Part shown: piece by piece, positions 12,087-30,474 of the stretch | Numbering within the stretch: position 1 is the stretch's first letter | How the letters are laid out: the number at the start of each line of letters is the position of its first letter | From: a virus | Taxonomy: Duplodnaviria; Caudoviricetes | Virus record (IMG/VR): IMGVR_UViG_3300012953_000125 | Location: 1 to 30,907 of that record | Strand: one strand, 5' to 3' | Length of the DNA stretch: 30,907 nt | Notes under the pieces: model-generated | Told to the model about the DNA's origin: nothing | Seen by the model: only the letters and a program-made list of their open reading frames with translations | The model's database searches: none | Made by a program: the position numbers and the translations under genes

Positions 12087-15000
12087 TGAGCGGAATTGGA
12101 AGCGTAGACAAACTTTTACCTAGACTAAACAGTCTAGTTCCCGACTTTGTTCAGTCAGAGTCGCCAGAGTTTGTCGCCTTCCTAAAAGCTTATTTTGAGT
12201 TTCTAGAACATGAAACAATAGTTCTCAAAAGTCAATCGACTATTGATAACTTCGGTTTGGAAGATGGAAGCGGTGACATATTATTTGAAACCGCAACCAT
12301 CTCTCCTTCCCAAACAGATACTAATAAAATATTATTAGAACAATCCGCAGATAACCCTGATATAAATGCTGACCCTTTTGTAACAGGAGAATATATTGTC
12401 GGTAATACATCTAAATCAGTTGCAAAAATAAATGTTGTTAACGGAACACAAATGTTCGTTAAAACAATATCAGGAATGGGTTTCAAAGCAAATGAAACTG
12501 TAACTGGAAGAACTAGTAATCAAACAGGTATTGTTTCCGCATATAAAGAATCAACAATTCGTGCAAACAATAAACTATTAGATTACTCAGACATAGATAA
12601 AACAACGGAATCATTCTTAGATTATTTCCAAAAAGATTTCATGCCCTCTCTTGACGCAAGTTTAAATGCAAATAAGAGAACAACAATAAAACATATCAGA
12701 GACCTTTACCAAAAGAAAGGTTCACCTGATTCATTAAAGTTCCTTTTAAGACTTCTATATGGGCAAGAAGCAGAGGTAACATATCCATACGATAATACAA
12801 TTAAGTCAAGTGATTCTTCTTACGGTTCTGAAAGAAGAATGGTAATTAATGTTCCTATAATTAAAGACTTACCAAAAGCAACAGACACGATTACTGAATA
12901 TGATTCAGGTGTAATCTATGCACAAGGTATTATTAATATTGTTTATCCTGTATCAGGTTCGGATACATTATACTCACTTGATATTACAAATATAGCAAGT
13001 AAAGAGTTTAGACAAGGTTCTACTATAGAATTAAAAGATAGAGATACTAAAGAAACAAGAGAAGGAACTGTTTCGGGTATCATACAAACTTTCAATCAAA
13101 ATGATTCTTCCATATATCTTGACCACGGAGATAGTGGTGATATTCTTTTAGAAGACGGTAGTGGTTTATTATTTGAAGGAAGTTTTGCTTCAGCGGGTTC
13201 ACTATATGCTGACAACGACAAGATTGATTTTCAAGGTGCAAAAGATAATAATACAGCTGAGGTTGCTACTTCTGTAATTGAAGGAATACAAACAGGTTCT
13301 GTAGAAGAAGTTTATATTGAAGATGACGGTTCAGGTTATGAAGGTGGCGATATGGTTATCTTTGATAATAGAGGAACCAACGGAGACGGTGCATTTGGTA
13401 TGATTGGTTCTGCTGGAGACGAACTATTCCAAGAAGCAGGAACAAGATTTGGATACTATCAATTTACCGCAACAGCAGGACAAACAGTTTTTAGTGGTTA
13501 TGATAATTACGGACAACAAGTAATTTATGAAGACCACAACAGACACGTTTTTGTAAATGACGTAGAACAAACAACAGGATTTAGCACACAAGGAAGTATA
13601 CTAACTTTCAATTCAGGATTAAGTGCTGGTGACCAAGTAGAAATCTATACGGAGTATATGAGAATTCTACAAGAGGACGGTTCAGTAGTAAATCTTGAAA
13701 CAACAAATTCAAATATAAGAAAAGTAACTCTAATTAATAAAGGAACAGGTTACTCAAGTTTACCATTATGTGGCCCAGGCGGATACATTTATCCCGCTTC
13801 TTTAACTGGATTCACTGCAGGTGAAGTTATAACAGGACAAGCGGGTGCAACAGCAGTAATCGCTTTAGTTAATAACGAAAAAGGTAGACTAGAAGTATAT
13901 CGTAGACCAACAGATACAGGAAGTTTTAATACCAATGAAACATTAACTGGTGGTGGTAGTGGAACAGTATCCACTATTGTTCAACACCAAGTTTCTTCGG
14001 GAACAGGTGCAAAATTATTTGCATTCTCAAAAAGTATTGGTAGAGTTGGAACACTTAATTTACAAACACAAGGTCATTCATATCTTTCAGATGCACATGT
14101 AGCTGCTTCTTCGACATATCCTATGTTGATATCCGCACCAAGTGTTGCATTATCAAGAGACACAATCATAACAGGTGCAGTATCAGGTTCAACTGCAAGT
14201 GTGATTGACTTTAATTCTAATACACAACTTTTAAAAGTTAAAGATATGACTAATATGTTTTTAGAAAATGAAAACGTAACATATCCAAATGGTGGAACCT
14301 TTAAAATTCATGCATTCAATCCTTTCACTGGTAGAGGAACAATGGCAGGTGAAGGATTTATAAACAAGGGAACAACCAGTGACATAGGTGCTCTATCAGT
14401 TTCAGGACAATCAATTACAGATAGTAAATTTTATTAATCGCATTCTTATGTTGTAAGAATAGGTGAGAGTATCAACAAGTTCCGTTCAATAGTAAAAGAT
14501 TTAGTTCACCCTGCAGGACATATATTCTTTGGTGAAGTTGCGGTAACTAATAATGTTTCCATGAACGTTGCAGACGCAGACCATGTAAAATTTAGACCGA
14601 CTATTGTTATTAATGCTGGTGGAACCGATGACTTTACAGACGCAAGTGTTGGATTAGCAAATAGAACTGGACAAAGACAAGAAGTAGAAATATACTCATT
14701 ATCTACAGAAGAACATGACTTAGCATATGCACCAATGATTGCATTAGTTAATGAATCGATACCAAGTCCAAGCACAGACCCAAGAACAGGTGGGTCGATT
14801 ACTGAACCAAGAACAGAACATGGTGATTCTTCGCACAGACAAAGACATATAAACATTCTTAAGATTGTTTCCAAAAATGCAGAAGTCAATCAGGTTGGTA
14901 TGTGGACACCAACAGGTGGTATTCCAACAACCATATCTTTAGAAAGTGGTGACGGAACCTTTGACCCATACTTTGTTCTACAAACAAATGTAAATGGTGG

Positions 15001-15646
15001 GCCAGAAAGAAGACCTACACGTAACGGTAAACCTCTTCCAATAAATCCACACCATGAAGAAGTTCTTGTTTTAGAAGACAATACAAGAATTGAAATGGAA
15101 GAAGTCGTATGTAAATTAAGAATGGAACCTAGAAGAAATGCAGAAGTTAAAGGCGACTTTGGTGACGTAATGGTAATGGAAGACGGAACAACCATGCGTC
15201 TTGAAAGTGCAACAACAATTGAAGAGGTTAATTATTTTGTAACAGAAAGAACAAGAGAAAATTTAATAGAAAGATATATGCAAACCGAAGACGGTTATTC
15301 TATTACTATGGAAGACGATAGTAGATTAGTTGTAGAGGGGGTCAGTGAGAATGCTGTAACCTCGTCATTTGTATCTTTCGGAACTTCGTTTAATGACCTA
15401 AATATAATCAGTGGTCAACAAGTATATGATATTGCATATTATATTAAAGACGAAACAGATAATGACGACTTCTTATTAGAAGACGGCACAGGTGTTATCA
15501 TGAGTGAAGTCTCAAAACCCGAAGGACTTAGAATCCAAGACATGGAAACTTTCTTCCCTAACACCTTTATCCCAAAATTTTCCGACCATGCTAGAGATAG
15601 AACTAACATAACTTACTCAGCATACGTTAAATCGGGAACAAATTAA
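12086..15646 (+). CDS. gp7: Baseplate wedge initiator gp7-like (~1186 codons), interrupted by an in-frame TAA at 14435-14437
   Basis: N-terminal LVPDFV...FVAFLKAYFEFLE and IKHIRDLYQKKGS...FLLRLLYG. The frame continues through the stop (ITDSKFY*SHSYVVRIGESINKFRSIVKDLVHPAGHIFFGEV) into the 14561 ORF. Lies between gp6 and gp8. Confidence 0.8.
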
Positions 15647-20200: not shown

Positions 20201-23200
20201 ACTTATGTTCCTAGTAAAGTGGACTTAGGTGGTTTGGAACCTGACGGTGAATTTGAATTAGCAGACGCAGTAGACTTTAGACCAGTATTAGGTCAGATTT
20301 TAGGAACCTCTACCTTTAGTTCAGCTGCTCCGAATCCTGAAGCACCAATAAACTTAAGTGATACTACTGCTGGTGCAGTGTCTTCACCATTCTCATACTT
20401 TAGTAAATCATTTGAAGAAGCTGTTACAGGTGTTTCAGCTACAGGTGCTAGTGCGGTAGACGTTCCAGTCCCAGGCTCAAATGTAGTTGGTGATATTTCA
20501 TTCTATGTTGGAAGAATCGATAAAGTCTTCTTACATCAAGACGGTGAATTCCAAATATCTCAAGGAACTCCTTCCCTAACTCCTATGAAACCAAAAGGAC
20601 TCGATGACGCTATCGAATTATATGAGTTGAGAATTCCACCTTACACTGATGATTTAAAGAAAGTAAGATTAAGAAGTGTAGACCATAGAAGGTTTACAAT
20701 GAAAGATATCGGTAAGATATCTAACCGTGTTGCAAACTTAGAAAGGTTGACAACATTATCTCTACTAGAAAGAGATACACAAACAATGCAATTCCAAGAC
20801 GAAGACGGACTTGATAGATTCAAATCAGGTTTTGTTGTGGATTCATTTAAAGGACATAATATTGGAGACGTTAATCACTTAGATTATAATTGTGCGATTG
20901 ACACAAAATCAGGCGTATTAAGACCTAAGAGTTTCCAAAACTTTTTTGACATAGAATTAGATACAGTTAATAGTTCAAACTATCAAAAAACTGGTGACTT
21001 AATTACCTTACCTTATACAAGTAGAACATATGTAAATCAAAGTAAAGCGTCAAGGGCAATGAATGTCAACCCATATCACGTATTTGCATTTATTGGAAAT
21101 GTTAGTTTAACACCTGCATCAGATATATGGCAAGACCAAACACAATTACCCGAAGTAAGAATAAACAGAGAAGGTAACTTTGACGCACTATTAGCTGAAA
21201 GTGGAGACCTCGGAACTGTTTGGAATTCATGGCAAACAACATGGGTTGGAGAACCTACAACTACATCTACAGAAGTTCTTTCAACTTCTAGTGGTTCATG
21301 GAGTGGAGACCCAGCACAAGGTGGTGAATGGGTATCAGGAACAGAAGTATCTAGAGAAATTACAAACACAGTAGAAACACAAAGTAGAACTGGTATTAGA
21401 ACTACAGTAGTAGAAGACTTTGTAGAAGATAGAAATGACAGAGTTGTAAGTATATCTGTTATTCCATTTATCCGTGCTCAAACAATTGAGATTGACGCTG
21501 TAAACTTAAAACCTGATTCATTCCATTACGTATACTTTGACAGTCAAGACGTAAATGCATTTGTAAGACCTTTCAATGCAACGTATTCACAAGACGGTGG
21601 AACGACTGCAAGTTCAGGAATTAAAGCAGACGGTAACGGTAGAGTTCGTGCATATTTTGATTTACCTAATAATAGTGTAAATAGATTCGCAACTGGACAA
21701 AGAGATTTAAAAGTAACTTCAAGTTTTTACAACGAATCAAATCCTTCATCAGCTGGTGATGCGTCATTCAGTGCACAAGGATTATTACAAGCTAACCAAA
21801 CTGAAATTATTTCTACTAGAAATGGTAGAGTGGTTATGGGTGCAACTAGTAGTAACAGACAGATAACAAGACGTGGTGAGGTAATGAACTCACGAAACGT
21901 AGATACTGACCCACCACCACGTCCACAACCAGTGGTTCCAGTTCCTGCAGTTCCACCAACACCGCCCCCTGTTCCGCCAGAGGTTCCGCCTGTTGACCCA
22001 CCACCTTTTAATTTTAATATACCTATTAATGCAATTGGTGAAGCAGGTTTTACTTTTGACTTCCCTGAATTTGGATTTATGGGGTGGAGAGACCCACTTG
22101 CACAATCATTCTTGGTTGATAAGACTGGTGGTATGTATCTAACAGAAATAGACTTGTTCTTTAAAACAAAAGATGAAAGTTTACCTGTATCTGTAGAACT
22201 TAGAAACATGGTTAATGGATATCCTGGCCAAATTATATTACCATTCTCAGAAGTTACAAAAAATCCTGCAGATGTTAATTTAACACAGGACGGTTCAACC
22301 GCAACAACATTTACATTCCCAAGTCCAGTATTTTTAGAAGAAGGACAGGAATATTGTTTCGTGGTTCTTTCAAATTCTGATAAGTATGAAGCATACATTT
22401 CAAGAATGGGTGAAACAGACTTAATAACTGGACAAACAATTTCAGGACAACCATATGCTGGTTCATTGTTTATGTCACAAAACTCTTCGACATGGACTGC
22501 AGAACAAACAGACGATTTGAAGTTCCATATGAAGTATGCATCTTTTGATACTGCAAAAATACCAGTTGTCAAATTTAATAACAAAAGTTTATCTGCTTCA
22601 CCTTTACAAGCAAATCCGATTGAATCATATGTTGGAACAAATTACGTAAGAGTTTATTCTTTCAGTCATGGTATGTATGATACTAGTTCTAACGCTGTGA
22701 TAGCAGGAGTAACGGGAGAAGCTATAGGTGGAGTAATTAATATTGAAGCAGAAGGTTCAATGGCAACAACTGGAACTCTTCCTGCAGATGGGTCTTATAA
22801 TGACCTTGCAACAACTAATGACGGAAGTGGAACAGGTTGCACCGTAGATATAACAATAGCTTCGGGTGCAATAAGTTCAGTTAAAATTTCAAATCCAGGC
22901 TTCGGATATTTAGCTACCAACGCATTAACAGTTACTAACTTTGGTAGTGCAACAAATACTGTTGCAATTGATATTGATACCGTAGACCAAACAATTGGTG
23001 GTATTCCAGTATCAGCTATTAATGGAACATATACTTCTATTGCAAATATAGATATCGATAGTTACACAGTAATACCTGACCTATCAGGCACAGACCTTAA
23101 ATCAGGTTACGTAGCATTATCAAGCACACAAAGTGGTGGAACAGATGTAACTGCACAGAGAAACTATTACTTTGATACAATACATACAATGATACCAAGT

Positions 23201-23924: not shown

Positions 23925-24164
23925 ATGTCTAAGTTTGCATATGAAAAAGGACATAGTAAAGTAGAAGGACATTCTTTACTAATTAGAGAAGAAAGTTCAA
24001 GTGCGATTATCAATAATGATGTCGCAGGGTATCAAGCTGCTATAAGAAGAAAGAAAGTCTTTCAGATACAGCGAGATGAAATAAATATGTTAAAAGATGA
24101 AATGGGTGAGATAAAACAACTATTAGGTGAAATATTAGAGAGAACAAATGGCAAAAACAGTTGA
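23925..24164 (+). CDS. Small hypothetical protein with C-terminal coiled coil
   Basis: KVEGHSLLIREESSSAIIN...EINMLKDEMGEIKQLL resembles the small gene that usually follows the DUF4815 gene. Confidence 0.7.
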   Translation: MSKFAYEKGHSKVEGHSLLIREESSSAIINNDVAGYQAAIRRKKVFQIQRDEINMLKDEMGEIKQLLGEILERTNGKNS

Positions 24165-25734
24165 CCAATTTAGCACGTTAGAAAATTTTAGAACTCGTTA
24201 CAACGACCTTGCATCAGACGTTGGGGATATCTCTGGCTTAAGAACTGACGTTACAGGAAATCTAATAGACGCAATCAACAGTATAGAAGATAAAACATTC
24301 TTCTATCAAGAGTTTCTTTATACTGCAACTGCTTCTCAAACTGCATTTACAGGAAATGACGCATTTAGTAATGACTTAGTATTCAAGAAAGATAGAATAC
24401 AGGTTTATAAAAATGGTTCATTGTTAAGGGTTGGTGACGATTATGTTTTAGCAAGTCAACAATCAGACGGAACATTCAAACAGATTACACTTATTTCAGG
24501 TGCAAGTTCAGGTGATAAAATCGCTATACATGCTTTCACTGGTTCGTTCTTAACGGTTCAAGGTGGTGGTGTAGGTGGTAGTTCTTTATTCACAGAAACT
24601 GCAAACAATACAATTTTTAACCATAACAGTAATGGTATAATATTAAACGCAAACAATACTCCTTCTATAACTTCATTAGATACTGGTGTAAATATTCAGT
24701 TAGAAGGTGTAACTAAAGTTGACGGTAATTTATCAGTTGATACTGGACACACATTTACCGCTCCAACAATTACAGACGGAACAATATCAATAACTGGTGG
24801 TAACCTTACTAACGCAACAAGTATAACTTCTACTGCATTTGCTGGTAACTTGACAGGCGATGTAACAGGTGATACTACAGGAACACACATTGGGCCGTTA
24901 ACTTCGAGTTCAGGAAATGTTCAGGTTACAGCAGCTACATACATAACAGAATTTAGAGGTGGTGGTTCTACCGAAGGGCAGATTAAACTTAACTGTCACG
25001 TTAACTCTCATGGTCAAACAATTAAACCACAACCACATAGTGCAAATGTTACAAATACTTTAACACTCCCTGCTGGTGGAGACCAAGAGTTAGTTGGAAC
25101 AAGTGCAACTCAAACATTAACAAATAAAACTATTACAGGGACTTTTACTGGTTCATTAACAGGAACTACTTCTGATATTTCTAATCATAGTATCACAGGA
25201 TTAAGTGACGTTCATGGAACACCTAGTGACGGACAGATACTTGTTTATAGTTCAAGCAATAGTAGGTATGAACCTACAAACCAAAATACTTCTGACAGTG
25301 TAACAGAGGGTTCAAGTAATTTATATTTCACAAATGAAAGAGTTGACGATAGAGTTAATTCATTATTAGTTGGTGGAACAGGTATCTCATTAACATATGA
25401 CGATGCAGGTAATTCTTTAACTATTAATGGAAATGCTTTATATGGTGACGAAGATGTTTTAGACTTCTTAGGTGGCGGTGGACTAGTCGGTGGAAATGGT
25501 ATCGACCTATCATATGATGACGCCGCTAATACATTAACCATTCACAGTGATATTGAAGGTGGTTCAGGTCTGCTTGCAGTTACAGAAGCAACAGGATTAA
25601 ACACTATAAATATCGGCGCAGGTAAAGGAATAAAAGTTAACGCAGATGACGTGCAACTTGACTACGAAGTAACTAACTCAACCCCAGGCTCAGTTGGTTC
25701 TACACCCGATGGTCACCTTTGGTTTGTGATATAG
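24148..25734 (+). CDS. Tail fibre / whisker-like protein, 528 aa
   Basis: N-terminal TLENFRTRYNDL anchor, a TATASQTxF Ig-like module, GNLTGDVTG, TQTLTNKT, LSDV...DGQILVY, EGSSNLYFTNER, two GIxLxYDDAxNxLTI repeats, and C-terminal PDGHLWFVI. Confidence 0.75.
   Translation: MAKTVDQFSTLENFRTRYNDLASDVGDISGLRTDVTGNLIDAINSIEDKTFFYQEFLYTATASQTAFTGNDAFSNDLVFKKDRIQVYKNGSLLRVGDDYVLASQQSDGTFKQITLISGASSGDKIAIHAFTGSFLTVQGGGVGGSSLFTETANNTIFNHNSNGIILNANNTPSITSLDTGVNIQLEGVTKVDGNLSVDTGHTFTAPTITDGTISITGGNLTNATSITSTAFAGNLTGDVTGDTTGTHIGPLTSSSGNVQVTAATYITEFRGGGSTEGQIKLNCHVNSHGQTIKPQPHSANVTNTLTLPAGGDQELVGTSATQTLTNKTITGTFTGSLTGTTSDISNHSITGLSDVHGTPSDGQILVYSSSNSRYEPTNQNTSDSVTEGSSNLYFTNERVDDRVNSLLVGGTGISLTYDDAGNSLTINGNALYGDEDVLDFLGGGGLVGGNGIDLSYDDAANTLTIHSDIEGGSGLLAVTEATGLNTINIGAGKGIKVNADDVQLDYEVTNSTPGSVGSTPDGHLWFVI
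25605..25612 (+). promoter_or_regulatory. Possible internal late promoter TATAAATA upstream of the 476-aa repeat gene
   Basis: Exact consensus inside the upstream CDS, about 140 nt before ATG 25752. Could be chance in AT-rich DNA. Confidence 0.35.
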
Positions 25735-25751: not shown

Positions 25752-27182
25752 ATGGCAGACGAAATATATATAAACACCAAGAATGCTCCACATAGTCAAG
25801 TAGGTCAACTCGGGCCTACAGGAACCTTTCAACAAAGTTATGACGGGCAAAGACAACTAACTGGTAGACTTCAAAACCAAAGAGCTGTAACTGGTCAAAC
25901 TCCATTTACATATCAAAATAGATATCCATTTACGTATCCTGCAAGTGCAAGAGGAAGAACTCCTTCTACATATCAGGCAAGGTATCCTTATCCTGCTAAT
26001 ACACTAGTAAGATATCCATTTACATATCCTGCAATAGGAAGAAACCCATATCCTGCAGGTGCACAAGGTAGATATCCATTTAATTATCAAGCAAGATATC
26101 CATTTCCTACTACGTATCAGGCAAGACAACCAAGTAATTATCAAGCAAGATATCCATTTACATATCCTGCTAATGCGAGAGGACAAGCACCGTATACTTA
26201 TCCTGCTAATGCACGACAAGCTTATCCTGCAAGTGCACAAACACCGTATCCTGCAAATGCATCGACACGAGTTCAATCAGCAACCCAAGTAAACTACAAT
26301 TATACTACTCAAGTAAGTTTTCAGGGGCCACACCAACAACCGACTCCATATAATTTCCCTGTTGGTCTTGGTGGTAAATTAGGTGATGCACAGGTGCCTG
26401 GCCAAGCACAGAACACTACTCAAGGCCCATATACTGGGCCTCAACCTGCGGTAGGAAGAAGACCTTTTTCTTATCCAGCGGCAAGAACGGTATCAGGAAC
26501 TTCCCAGTATCCCGAAGGTGAAGGTGGAGTTCAGTTTGGTCGTTTTCCGATACCTTATACGTTTACTCAATTCTATCAATTTGAACCTAGAAGTCAAGCC
26601 TCACAACCATTTACATATCAGGCAAGGTCACCATCAAATTATCAAGCACGAAATCCATTTACTTATCAGGCAAGTGCACAGACAAGATATCCATTTACGT
26701 ATCAAGCAAACGCTAGAGGAAGATATCCTGCAAATGCACAAACAGCTTATCCTGCAAATACTAATGCACAAGGAAGATATCCTGCAAGTGCACAAGGTAG
26801 ATATCCATTTAATTATCAAGCACAACAACCATTTCCGTATCAAGCAAATGCTAGAGGAAATACGCCGTCTACTTATCAAGCACAAGGAAGGTATCCTGCA
26901 AACGCACAAAACAGATATCCATATAACTACCAAGCGAACGCAAGAGGAACATATCCTGCAAATGCACAGAATCCTTATCCGTTCCAACAGAATTATCAAA
27001 ATCCTTATCCGTATACGCAACCTTATCCAACCACTAGACCTATTGGAAATGTTGCTAAGGCAAAAGGTATTTACATAAATGATGCAGGAACTTTAAGAAA
27101 ATTACAAGAAGTATATGTAAATAACCAAGGAAGTTTAGAAAAAATTCACCAAACAGTTCCTGCACCGCAATTCCAAAAGTAA
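25752..27182 (+). CDS. Q/Y/P/A/R-rich repeat protein with mirror-symmetric arms; putative fibre-tip adhesin or stalk
   Basis: Units such as QARYPFTY and PANAQxxY form two 128-aa arms around a unique 107-aa centre. C-terminal GIYINDAGTLRKLQEVYVNNQGSLEKIH motif. Confidence 0.75.
   Translation: MADEIYINTKNAPHSQVGQLGPTGTFQQSYDGQRQLTGRLQNQRAVTGQTPFTYQNRYPFTYPASARGRTPSTYQARYPYPANTLVRYPFTYPAIGRNPYPAGAQGRYPFNYQARYPFPTTYQARQPSNYQARYPFTYPANARGQAPYTYPANARQAYPASAQTPYPANASTRVQSATQVNYNYTTQVSFQGPHQQPTPYNFPVGLGGKLGDAQVPGQAQNTTQGPYTGPQPAVGRRPFSYPAARTVSGTSQYPEGEGGVQFGRFPIPYTFTQFYQFEPRSQASQPFTYQARSPSNYQARNPFTYQASAQTRYPFTYQANARGRYPANAQTAYPANTNAQGRYPASAQGRYPFNYQAQQPFPYQANARGNTPSTYQAQGRYPANAQNRYPYNYQANARGTYPANAQNPYPFQQNYQNPYPYTQPYPTTRPIGNVAKAKGIYINDAGTLRKLQEVYVNNQGSLEKIHQTVPAPQFQK
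25890..26978 (+). repeat. Degenerate coding repeats (e.g. AGATATCCATTTAC and TATCCTGCAAATGCAC)
   Basis: Many imperfect 18-36 nt units in 25890-26273 and 26595-26978. Confidence 0.85.
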
Positions 27183-27200: not shown

Positions 27201-27533
27201 ATGGCAGTAATAGCAAACATATACATAGACCAAGGAACTGACTTTACTGTGCAAGTTGATTGCACAGATACTGCTGGTGACGTATTGAATCTTACAGGTT
27301 ATACTCCTACTGCCCAAATTAGAAAAACATATGGTTCTTCTAATGCGACTGCAACCTTCACTTGTTCACATACAGGAGTTGGTGGTGTAGTTAATATGTC
27401 TTTAACTGATGTTCAAACAACTGCTATTGAATCGGGGCGATACGTCTATGACTTAATGGTAACAGACGGAAGTGGTGTTAAAAGTCGTATAGTGGAAGGA
27501 CAAGCAATTGTAACCCCAGGCGTAACGAGGTAA
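27201..27533 (+). CDS. Small virion structural protein, Ig-like adaptor (BppU-N-like)
   Basis: ANIYIDQGTDF, NLTGY..AQIRK, LT..QT.AI..GRYVYD and RIVEG.A.VTPGVT motifs, recalled as common in marine T4-like fibre regions. Confidence 0.7.
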   Translation: MAVIANIYIDQGTDFTVQVDCTDTAGDVLNLTGYTPTAQIRKTYGSSNATATFTCSHTGVGGVVNMSLTDVQTTAIESGRYVYDLMVTDGSGVKSRIVEGQAIVTPGVTR

Positions 27534-29331: not shown

Positions 29332-30474
29332 ATGGCAACAGTCATAACGTTCAAGAAGTCTTCGACTCAGAACGCTGTTCCAACAACCTCAGATATCACT
29401 CTAGGTGAGTTGGCAGTAAATACTTACCACGGTAGGTTTTATACTGAGAAGAATGACGGTTCGGCTGCCATTGTAGAAGTAGGGTCTAATCCTGCATCAT
29501 TCACTATTAATGACGCAATCACATTCCCCACTTCCGATGGTTCAGCAGACCAAGTTATAGTAACCGATGGTTCGGGTGCTTTATCGTGGGCAGACCAAAG
29601 TGGTGGTGGAAGTTATGGAACTGGAAATACTTTTACCTATACACTAACAGGAACTACAACTACAATATCAGGTAATGACGATGATGGGCAAGCATTGTCA
29701 TACGATATCGGAAAAGAAGCAGTATATCTAAACGGTGTATTATTACAAGACGGTGGTGTCGATTACGCAACAACAAGTTCCTCAGTTATCACTCTTCAAG
29801 CAAATGGAGAAAGTGGTGATGTTCTCTGTGTTAAAACACCTAAACAGCCAGGTGCATTAGTTGAAAGTTCATCTTCAGCATTAACAACTACTAATGCAGA
29901 CCAAACTATTCTTTCGATTGCTTCTGCTGGGACAAAGTCAACTAAAATATCTTTGACTGCAGTTCATTCAACAGGTTCACATTCATGTGAAGTAGTTATG
30001 GGTAATGACGGAAGTAGTGCATTCTTTTCACAATATGGTGACGTAACAACTACAGGGGCATTTTTGTATACTTTATCTACAACAATGTCAAGTGGTAATC
30101 AAATATTAAGAGCGACACCTGCTAATACTAATACAACTTTCTTTTTAACCTACAGTAGGTTACCAGCACTTAAAGACGGTGAGTTGACAACTACAGCTAC
30201 AACTGCAGACCAAACTCTTGATTCACAATCAACTGCGTATGAAGGATTAAAATATTCATTACTTGCAGTCCATTCGAGTGGAACACACGCATGTGAGGTT
30301 GTCGTAGGAACAGACGGAACCGATAGTTACTTCTCACAATATGGTGATGTGGTAACATCAGGTGTTCTATTCTCTCTAAATACATCAGTTAGTTCAGGAA
30401 ATACTAATCTATTGGTAACTCCTGCTAATACTAATACTACGTTCTATTGGAGCGTGACTAAGAGAGGAGAGTAA
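29332..30474 (+). CDS. Tail fibre protein, 380 aa, with two tandem C-terminal beta domains
   Basis: MATVITFKKSS...P...GELAVN N-terminus, FPTSDGSADQVIVTDGSGALSW, and a duplicated ~95-aa domain (H.CEV..G.DG...FSQYGDV...TPANTNTTF). Confidence 0.8.
   Translation: MATVITFKKSSTQNAVPTTSDITLGELAVNTYHGRFYTEKNDGSAAIVEVGSNPASFTINDAITFPTSDGSADQVIVTDGSGALSWADQSGGGSYGTGNTFTYTLTGTTTTISGNDDDGQALSYDIGKEAVYLNGVLLQDGGVDYATTSSSVITLQANGESGDVLCVKTPKQPGALVESSSSALTTTNADQTILSIASAGTKSTKISLTAVHSTGSHSCEVVMGNDGSSAFFSQYGDVTTTGAFLYTLSTTMSSGNQILRATPANTNTTFFLTYSRLPALKDGELTTTATTADQTLDSQSTAYEGLKYSLLAVHSSGTHACEVVVGTDGTDSYFSQYGDVVTSGVLFSLNTSVSSGNTNLLVTPANTNTTFYWSVTKRGE

Follow-up and report, generated by a model that had tools for sequence, protein, structure and literature searches.

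The window, i.e., the whole analyzed stretch of 30,907 nucleotides from an IMG/VR record (linear virus, 17% complete), carries a T4-like myophage tail module, in which genes for the tail tube, baseplate hub, wedges, and a VrlC-like protein of 2234 aa precede a set of fiber-like genes. The public runs containing the stretch are marine, and the baseplate wedge has only 36–39% identity to wedges of SAR11, OM43, and cyanobacterial myophages. The VrlC-like protein has a Pro/Val-rich run at positions 21880–22000, and no PHROG match was found for two structural-module genes (14561–15646, 361 aa; 29332–30474, 380 aa). The mirror-repeat gene analyzed here is located after VrlC; in relatives the cluster runs up to the neck gene, and the available part of a previous report terms the interval from VrlC to neck the "host recognition cluster" (PMC7029224). 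The gene, its parts and its neighbors are as follows.

24148..25734, + strand: fiber-like protein, 528 aa, predicted trimeric carrier (phrog_697 structural protein; its end repeats weakly match the solved tail fiber 9qgo, E 0.008).
25657..25731, + strand: C-terminal motif of the fiber, ending GHLWFVI, predicted docking site (GHLWFV near-invariant in 29 sequences; interface in the complex prediction).
25752..27182, + strand: mirror-repeat protein, 476 aa, one-gene form of the site-1 family (open reading frame; 165 homologs; same gene position in related loci).
25761..25775, + strand: N-terminal EIYIN strand, aa 4–8, third copy of the base repeat (78/78 by pattern; strand E5-7 in a low-confidence model).
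25839..26261, + strand: N arm of the stem, aa 30–170 (unbroken register i + j = 457; strict parity).
26295..26456, + strand: putative tip branch 1, hairpin of aa 182–200 with 217–235 around a GLGGKLGD loop (score 16.2 vs shuffle 95th percentile of 14.6; weak).
26463..26591, + strand: putative tip branch 2, hairpin of about aa 238–254 with 264–280 around a PEGEGG loop (AlphaFold2 strands 241–251 and 267–277, pLDDT 53–64).
26610..27032, + strand: C arm of the stem, aa 287–427 (unbroken register; strict parity).
27057..27152, + strand: base, two predicted beta-hairpins with IYIN (440–443) and VYVN (454–457), predicted docking module (pLDDT 72–78 for aa 441–470; phrog_13729 match; complex prediction).
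27201..27533, + strand: neighbor gene, 110 aa (phrog_1084 and phrog_3304, 'L-shaped tail fiber protein assembly'; 3' of complete site-1 units).

Contig pieces from two public runs tile the mirror-repeat gene with 0 differing letters (either run is possibly the source sample; joints among the pieces mostly resemble pieces of paralogs and were left out), and given this agreement to the letter the gene is not an assembly slip. Contigs from RNA libraries, which cannot show transcription, cover parts of it. Across the tip (26229–26725), one public-run strain had 20 differing letters out of 497, compared with 16/2071 on the upstream side and 5/1071 on the downstream side.

A sequence-only reading had cut the protein by hand into short units and reported that the units of a C-terminal arm mirror those of an N-terminal arm in reverse order. 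The 476-aa reading frame is present as claimed at 25752–27182, and the arms have no Asp or Glu within the claimed bounds (the outermost unit boundaries, at 47, 174, 282, and 409, were set by hand). With a mechanical rule chosen after the hand parse was known, i.e., cutting after Tyr before Gln or Pro-Ala, the N arm (54–166) received 13 cuts, and all 13 were mirrored in the C arm at i + j = 455, as was reached by only 1 of 100,000 unit-order shuffles. The mirrored order was weaker under looser rules (p = 0.009 for Tyr before Pro or Gln, p = 0.024 for all Tyr), and for this reason the homolog tests carry more weight than the single sequence. The same looser p values are what speaks for the mirror being a chance outcome of low-complexity repetition, a result of the hand parse, an inverted repeat in the DNA, or an assembly artefact. 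No inverted DNA repeat was detected between the arms (one chance 16-nt pair), the assemblies agree, and the homolog tests given below, using transposed training and each chain's own partner, refute this explanation, to which we give practically no credence. Judged across the homologous proteins, the mirror is real and is conserved throughout the family.

The claimed size of 128 aa per arm and the unit-to-unit register did not stand: the stem comprises 141 pairs (aa 30–170 with 287–427) at i + j = 457. The two-residue periodicity, described before as unit lengths that are all even, is strict in both arms. Within aa 30–170, Pro was found at odd positions (21/21) and Tyr/Phe at even positions (27/27); within aa 287–427, Pro was found at even positions (19/19) and Tyr/Phe at odd positions (28/28). 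Pro occupies 40 of the 282 stem positions, at a single parity per arm, and one face of each arm is purely aromatic or small.

The register of the homologs was fixed via conserved terminal motifs, except for the site-2 offset (see below), which was read off the data. The anti-diagonal covariation proposed as a check by the earlier reading appeared as a sharp peak at one antiparallel register, i.e., i + j = 457 in the query. The conditional mutual information between the arms was 1.02 at the peak in 22 non-redundant one-gene proteins, compared with about 0.25–0.39 far away, and 1.14 at the peak in five two-gene pairs. Parallel pairing was rejected, as its best register reached 0.49 vs 1.13 for antiparallel.

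The pairs follow a code that is reciprocal between the arms, with Pro:Gln/Arg and Asn:Thr on one face and Tyr/Phe:Ala/Gly on the other. On the Pro face (n = 1699 pairs), P:Q (509), P:R (217), and N:T (183) were counted, along with I:Q; on the aromatic face (n = 1703), A:Y (274), A:F (180), and G:Y (153), along with R:Y, Q:S, and Q:T. In register, Pro:Pro was seen 0 times vs 61 expected in one-gene proteins, 0 vs 36 in two-gene pairs, and once vs 29 at site 2. When the pair matrix was trained with the N and C arms swapped, which removes leakage from shared ancestry, the anchor register ranked first of 41 in 5/5 two-gene pairs, 5/5 site-2 paralogs, and 21/22 one-gene proteins. A first, hand-made pair score had detected the axis in close relatives and missed it in most distant ones. 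The best axis minus protein length was −19 or −20 in the query and six close relatives (443–508 aa) and +34 in five paralogs (434–561 aa).

The earlier proposal that units face each other across the arms held for the antiparallel pairing but not for whole unit against whole unit, as at the residue level it is Tyr that faces Ala/Gly. By this register, the Tyr-to-Tyr unit mirror (455) is a diagonal neighbor of the true register (457). Two residues off register, Tyr:Tyr was enriched on one side and Pro:Pro on the other (132 seen, 59 expected), as would be expected if a twisted ribbon brought diagonal neighbors into contact on its two opposite faces. In two related proteins of 744–745 aa (P0091, P0160), which have a large head inserted, the code is a different dialect (R:Y, E:Y, V:Y, Q:R, N:N, H:V) that retains P:Q; their single-sequence mutual information peak was weak and two residues off the anchor register. 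That the arms pair antiparallel and in register is, in our assessment, hardly in doubt.

The searches retrieved 165 proteins and >250 loci of the family, and 101 distinct units from viral loci fall into two paralogous sites about 8 kb apart. The upstream fiber gene ends in GHLW at site 1, to which the queried gene belongs (49/49 units with a called upstream gene), and in GDLW at site 2 (42/42); 10 units, including the window's own copy, had no called upstream gene. A small gene follows the complete site-1 units examined, whereas site-2 genes have no such neighbor. The bases at the two sites gave an hhalign probability of 1.85%, so we describe their likeness as a resemblance. No match for the protein or its base was found among 50,697 phage records (a low-complexity filter weakens the protein search). 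The base motif is also present in two assembled bacterial genomes (L254, L255), possibly as binned phage contigs.

At both sites the stalk is encoded either by one gene or by two adjacent genes, of which chain A has the base strand(s) and one arm, often with a head, and chain B has the other arm and the rest of the base. The two-gene analysis parsed 55 of 61 units (6 were missed by the anchor patterns; the window's own stretch, L247, was excluded). The lengths of arm A, estimated without reference to chain B, and arm B were nearly equal over a range of 166–433 residues (r = 0.989, median difference 2–3). The anchor register ranked first in 53/55 pairs, and chain A scored highest with its own chain B in 16/18 and 37/37 cases. 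The claim that arm lengths are equal across homologs is thus supported in general but has exceptions: chain A is too short for chain B in L166 and L178, and some bulges and unpaired indels exist. The register ranked fourth in L105, and seven related site-1 pairs had an overall score near zero with 2–6 Pro:Pro pairs and an apparent register shift. As the phages are related, these homolog counts overstate independence. In seven site-2 two-gene units (L142, L145, L150, L164, L169, L170, L194), chain B is encoded before chain A and the register still matches. Within a genome, the half-length of the site-1 stalk correlates with that of the site-2 stalk (Spearman 0.77; 15/17 pairs parsed, relatedness uncorrected, one-gene lengths including the fork), with pairs on the same contigs including L001/L128, L044/L172, and L108/L167.

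Length changes had been predicted to require paired indels. Close relatives have indels of equal size in both chains, i.e., 46/46 (L174, L177), 18/18 (L143, L153), 8/8 (L150, L169), and 18 + 8/18 + 8 (L146, L154), and L150 and L185 differ by a series of 13 equal-sized gaps (gap positions are ambiguous inside repeats, and some pairs are less tidy). Perfect symmetry is not required, however, as bulges of 1–3 residues are common and a few unpaired indels were found. Among 42 one-gene stems, 23 are unbroken (109–189 pairs) and 17 need shifts or bulges of 1–3 residues; the exceptions are a 36-residue unpaired gap in P0012 and a shift of 6–8 residues in P0022. Only about 97 pairs could be traced in four one-gene proteins of 526–542 aa.

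Nearly all indels are of even length. Together with the strict two-residue periodicity and the single linear register over up to 433 residues, this argues against an antiparallel duplex that is not a beta-ribbon (polyproline-like, or a folded-up zigzag), for which the length estimate given below would be wrong. The high Pro/Gln content of the arms would suit such a duplex, as would the fact that predictors leave the arms as coil; we consider it improbable. A beta-ribbon rod, on the other hand, is very likely.

Structure prediction of the monomer, which the sequence-only reading had suggested, did not fold the stalk. AlphaFold2 gave a mean pLDDT of 42.1 for the query (51 sequences) and 29.9 for P0010 (20 register-screened sequences), with a few low-confidence stem strands at the predicted sum (33–46 with 411–424, sum 457, in the query; 20–25 with 424–429, sum 449, in P0010). 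Only 1–4 homologs align in register with the query, and the failure is partly due to repeat alignments losing register. The ribbon geometry and its length of 40–47 nm are consequently estimates. The rise of a beta-strand is about 0.33 nm per residue, and 141 pairs would thus extend 47 nm, or less if twisted. Foldseek of the query model against PDB and BFVD returned no match at E ≤ 0.001, which means little given the low confidence of the model, and a PDB sequence search with the protein profile returned nothing informative.

The IYIN-like motif occurs once at the N-terminus and twice at the C-terminus in 78/78 one-gene site-1 proteins (lenient pattern), and the C-terminal profile detects otherwise unrelated small proteins (P0166–P0171) with three contiguous copies of the repeat, all matching phrog_13729. 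Given this motif layout and the contiguous triple copies, the base is a three-repeat module split across the termini. We predicted a complex of three copies of the last 50 residues of the fiber with aa 425–476, which contain two of the three docking strands. The ipSAE was 0.79 vs 0.03 for the best of three controls (the sibling fiber end was not among them), the runs shared at least 93% of contacts, and the partner pLDDT was at least 75; this mark was reached by 116/157 solved vs 2/215 mismatched pairs, counts that are roughly applicable here. In the model, the GHLWF strand of one fiber copy pairs with I440–N443 and that of a second copy with V454–N457, W525 of one copy contacts Y441 and W525 of another contacts Y455; contacts are fewest for the third copy.

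The binding of base and fiber is thus supported as a prediction, and the EIYIN strand at the N-terminus would occupy the third site. As two base strands dock on two of the three GHLWF ends in the model, one ribbon per fiber trimer, an arrangement like that of gp38, is suggested, and we regard this stoichiometry as probable. No similar complex was found in PDB by sequence using the base and fiber-end profiles, though a like fold may exist; comparison of the base with GP38 clusters gave short structural leads below the bar (TM about 0.55).

The predicted stoichiometry bears on the main rival explanation, in which three copies of the hairpin bundle into a six-stranded needle like that of T4 gp37, with the Tyr/Ala faces as a core of constant section replacing the iron sites. 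A gp37 chain does double back into such a needle according to the accessible text of two studies (PMC12609058, PMC9659904), the purely aromatic/small face of each arm and its large:small pairing would suit a packed core, and the carrier fiber is itself modeled as a trimer. However, there are three docking-type strands per chain (78/78), and one partner engages at least two fiber copies in the model. In addition, the HxH motif is absent from 78/78 one-gene and 55/55 two-gene stems, and Pro at 40/282 stem positions, all of one parity, would block the hydrogen bonds of a barrel. We therefore consider the needle unlikely. One point does count against the two-stranded ribbon: a lone ribbon of 141 pairs leaves its Tyr face unburied.

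The center between the arms, proposed to be hypervariable, was the least conserved region in 88/92 pairwise comparisons, with an identity of 0.47 for the tip, 0.65 and 0.64 for the arms, and 0.78 for the base. The heads of two-gene forms are likewise divergent, at 0.33–0.59 identity in 12 site-1 pairs whose arms are 0.76–0.92 identical. Rather than a unique globular tip, the center with its two Gly-rich turns is likely a fork of two short hairpins, as the local pairing and the model strands suggest. Local stems exceeded the shuffle 95th percentile in 13/14 centers (best score per protein), and P0003, P0009, P0010, L002, L005, and L022 can each be interpreted as having a pair of adjacent hairpins, the second of which is often below the bar. 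For branch 1 of the query, an alternative pairing (176–197 with 236–257) scored 16.7. Branch 2 is outside the top four local stems of the query center, and its hand-read pairs (P242:Q276, A243:Y275, G249:Y269) fit the code.

A Hint-like domain is located at the end of many chain-A heads (P0026, P0029, L160:2505-3908, L174:3001-4926, L180, L193, L164; most of the Pfam hits scored around or under the cut-off), and the far end of some ribbons may be self-cleaving or ligating. The other chain-A heads had no Pfam match.

From the variability of the tip and the location of the gene, it is reasonably likely that host binding is located at the tip. It could instead be that the ribbon and its docking are right and the stalk serves as a scaffold for decorating subunits, or as a drag or spacer whisker, rather than as the receptor-binding part. 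Fibers made of a rope and dimers are described in the available text of one study (PMC13730344), and here the small gene that follows site 1 and an exposed Tyr stripe that could bind partners would be compatible with decoration. Site-2 genes, however, have no small downstream neighbor, and it is the tip rather than the stalk that varies, with two-gene forms placing variable heads at the far end; we find the scaffold explanation rather unlikely.

Our preferred reading remains a two-stranded antiparallel beta-ribbon of 40–47 nm, whose base caps the end of a trimeric fiber, one per trimer, and whose variable forked tip contacts the host, and we hold this full combination with moderate confidence. 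One chain would fold back and zip into the ribbon, with the base plugging the three-fold end of the upstream trimeric fiber, each IYIN-like strand pairing antiparallel with the GHLWF strand of one fiber chain. The variable fork would be held away from the virion and contact the host.

Pro lacks an NH, and in beta-sheets aromatic rings can cover small cross-strand partners. In the ribbon, the Pro-face pairs would be non-hydrogen-bonded and the Tyr/Phe:Gly/Ala pairs hydrogen-bonded, with the ring over the small partner. Because Pro has no NH, its nitrogen must point outward, which would keep further strands from joining the ribbon. The irregular order of the units would act as a zip code permitting one register only. 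Where two genes encode the stalk, this ribbon would be heterodimeric, with chain A running on into a swappable head in place of the fork.

Taken further, and here we lean only slightly in favor, the family would represent a new class of protein fiber, i.e., a naked two-stranded beta duplex that reaches about 430 residue pairs in related proteins, with a reciprocal amino-acid code like base pairing (including stems, bulges, three-way junctions, paired indels, and pairing in trans), mounted one per trimeric fiber via a circularly permuted three-hairpin cap, and thus a natural programmable protein ruler. If true, a ribbon of 40–140 nm is kept in one register by a simple code of residue pairs and has been missed by structure predictors. 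It would provide clean natural statistics for cross-strand pairing, and a rule by which orthogonal heterodimer zippers and rulers of chosen length could be designed. It would also pose an evolutionary puzzle, namely the origin of equal indels in two arms or two genes, and would provide a candidate for the device by which an abundant, uncultured marine T4-like group recognizes its hosts.

No description of the family was found in a literature search (subscription papers were mostly outside its scope and supplements were not covered), and neither a structure nor an isolate of the family was found. The available portions of PMC9608196 and PMC13252515 describe nothing similar. Among known systems, T4 gp37 forms a homotrimer; its last 215 residues contain a six-stranded barrel stabilized by HxH-iron sites as well as a collar domain, and the receptor-binding head is at the turn (PMC12609058 and PMC9659904, in the text available). 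The mirror-repeat protein shares with the gp37 needle, and with Bas63 fiber tips, a chain that runs out and back as antiparallel strands, a likeness seen here at the sequence level only. It differs in that the query stem has no His and HxH occurs in 0/78 and 0/55 stems, in that the query has no Pfam, PHROG, or PDB match to gp37 or its collar, and in having a separate gene, 141–433 pairs, a Pro/Gln and Tyr/Ala code, and split forms.

In the S16 gp37(3)–gp38 tip (PDB 6F45), a single adhesin chain, with hypervariable loops at its distal end, caps a trimeric fiber through a pseudo-three-fold module, according to the accessible part of PMC6851490. As with gp38, the mirror-repeat gene directly follows the fiber gene (49/49 and 42/42 units with a called upstream gene), and a single chain is predicted to cap the fiber end. 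Whereas gp38 attaches by three Trp helices and has a beta-helix and a polyglycine sandwich, the query has three beta-hairpins split circularly between its termini and a long ribbon body; it has no Trp, no helix in the model, no PF05268/GP38 Pfam hit, and no Gly runs. The phrog_13729-type proteins share the YVNDxGT repeat with the query, but have three contiguous N-terminal copies and an unrelated 120-residue domain without a stalk.

The G5-E rods of SasG and Aap are likewise monomeric, thin, length-variable stalks of single-layer beta-sheet that project an adhesin (as described in the available text of PMC4458895). No Pfam hit to G5 or E domains was detected in the query, and SasG strings local domains together head to tail whereas the query rod is one long-range duplex, so that length changes need paired edits. 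The chain-like fibers of podophages A1002, GP4, and VP1 also use an extended chain as the fiber axis, but theirs is a single rope strand coated by separate dimers, with no mirrored arms mentioned in the accessible text (PMC13730344). Given these comparisons, we conclude that the architecture fits no family tested and that the function is probably of a known kind, i.e., that of a fiber-tip adhesin.
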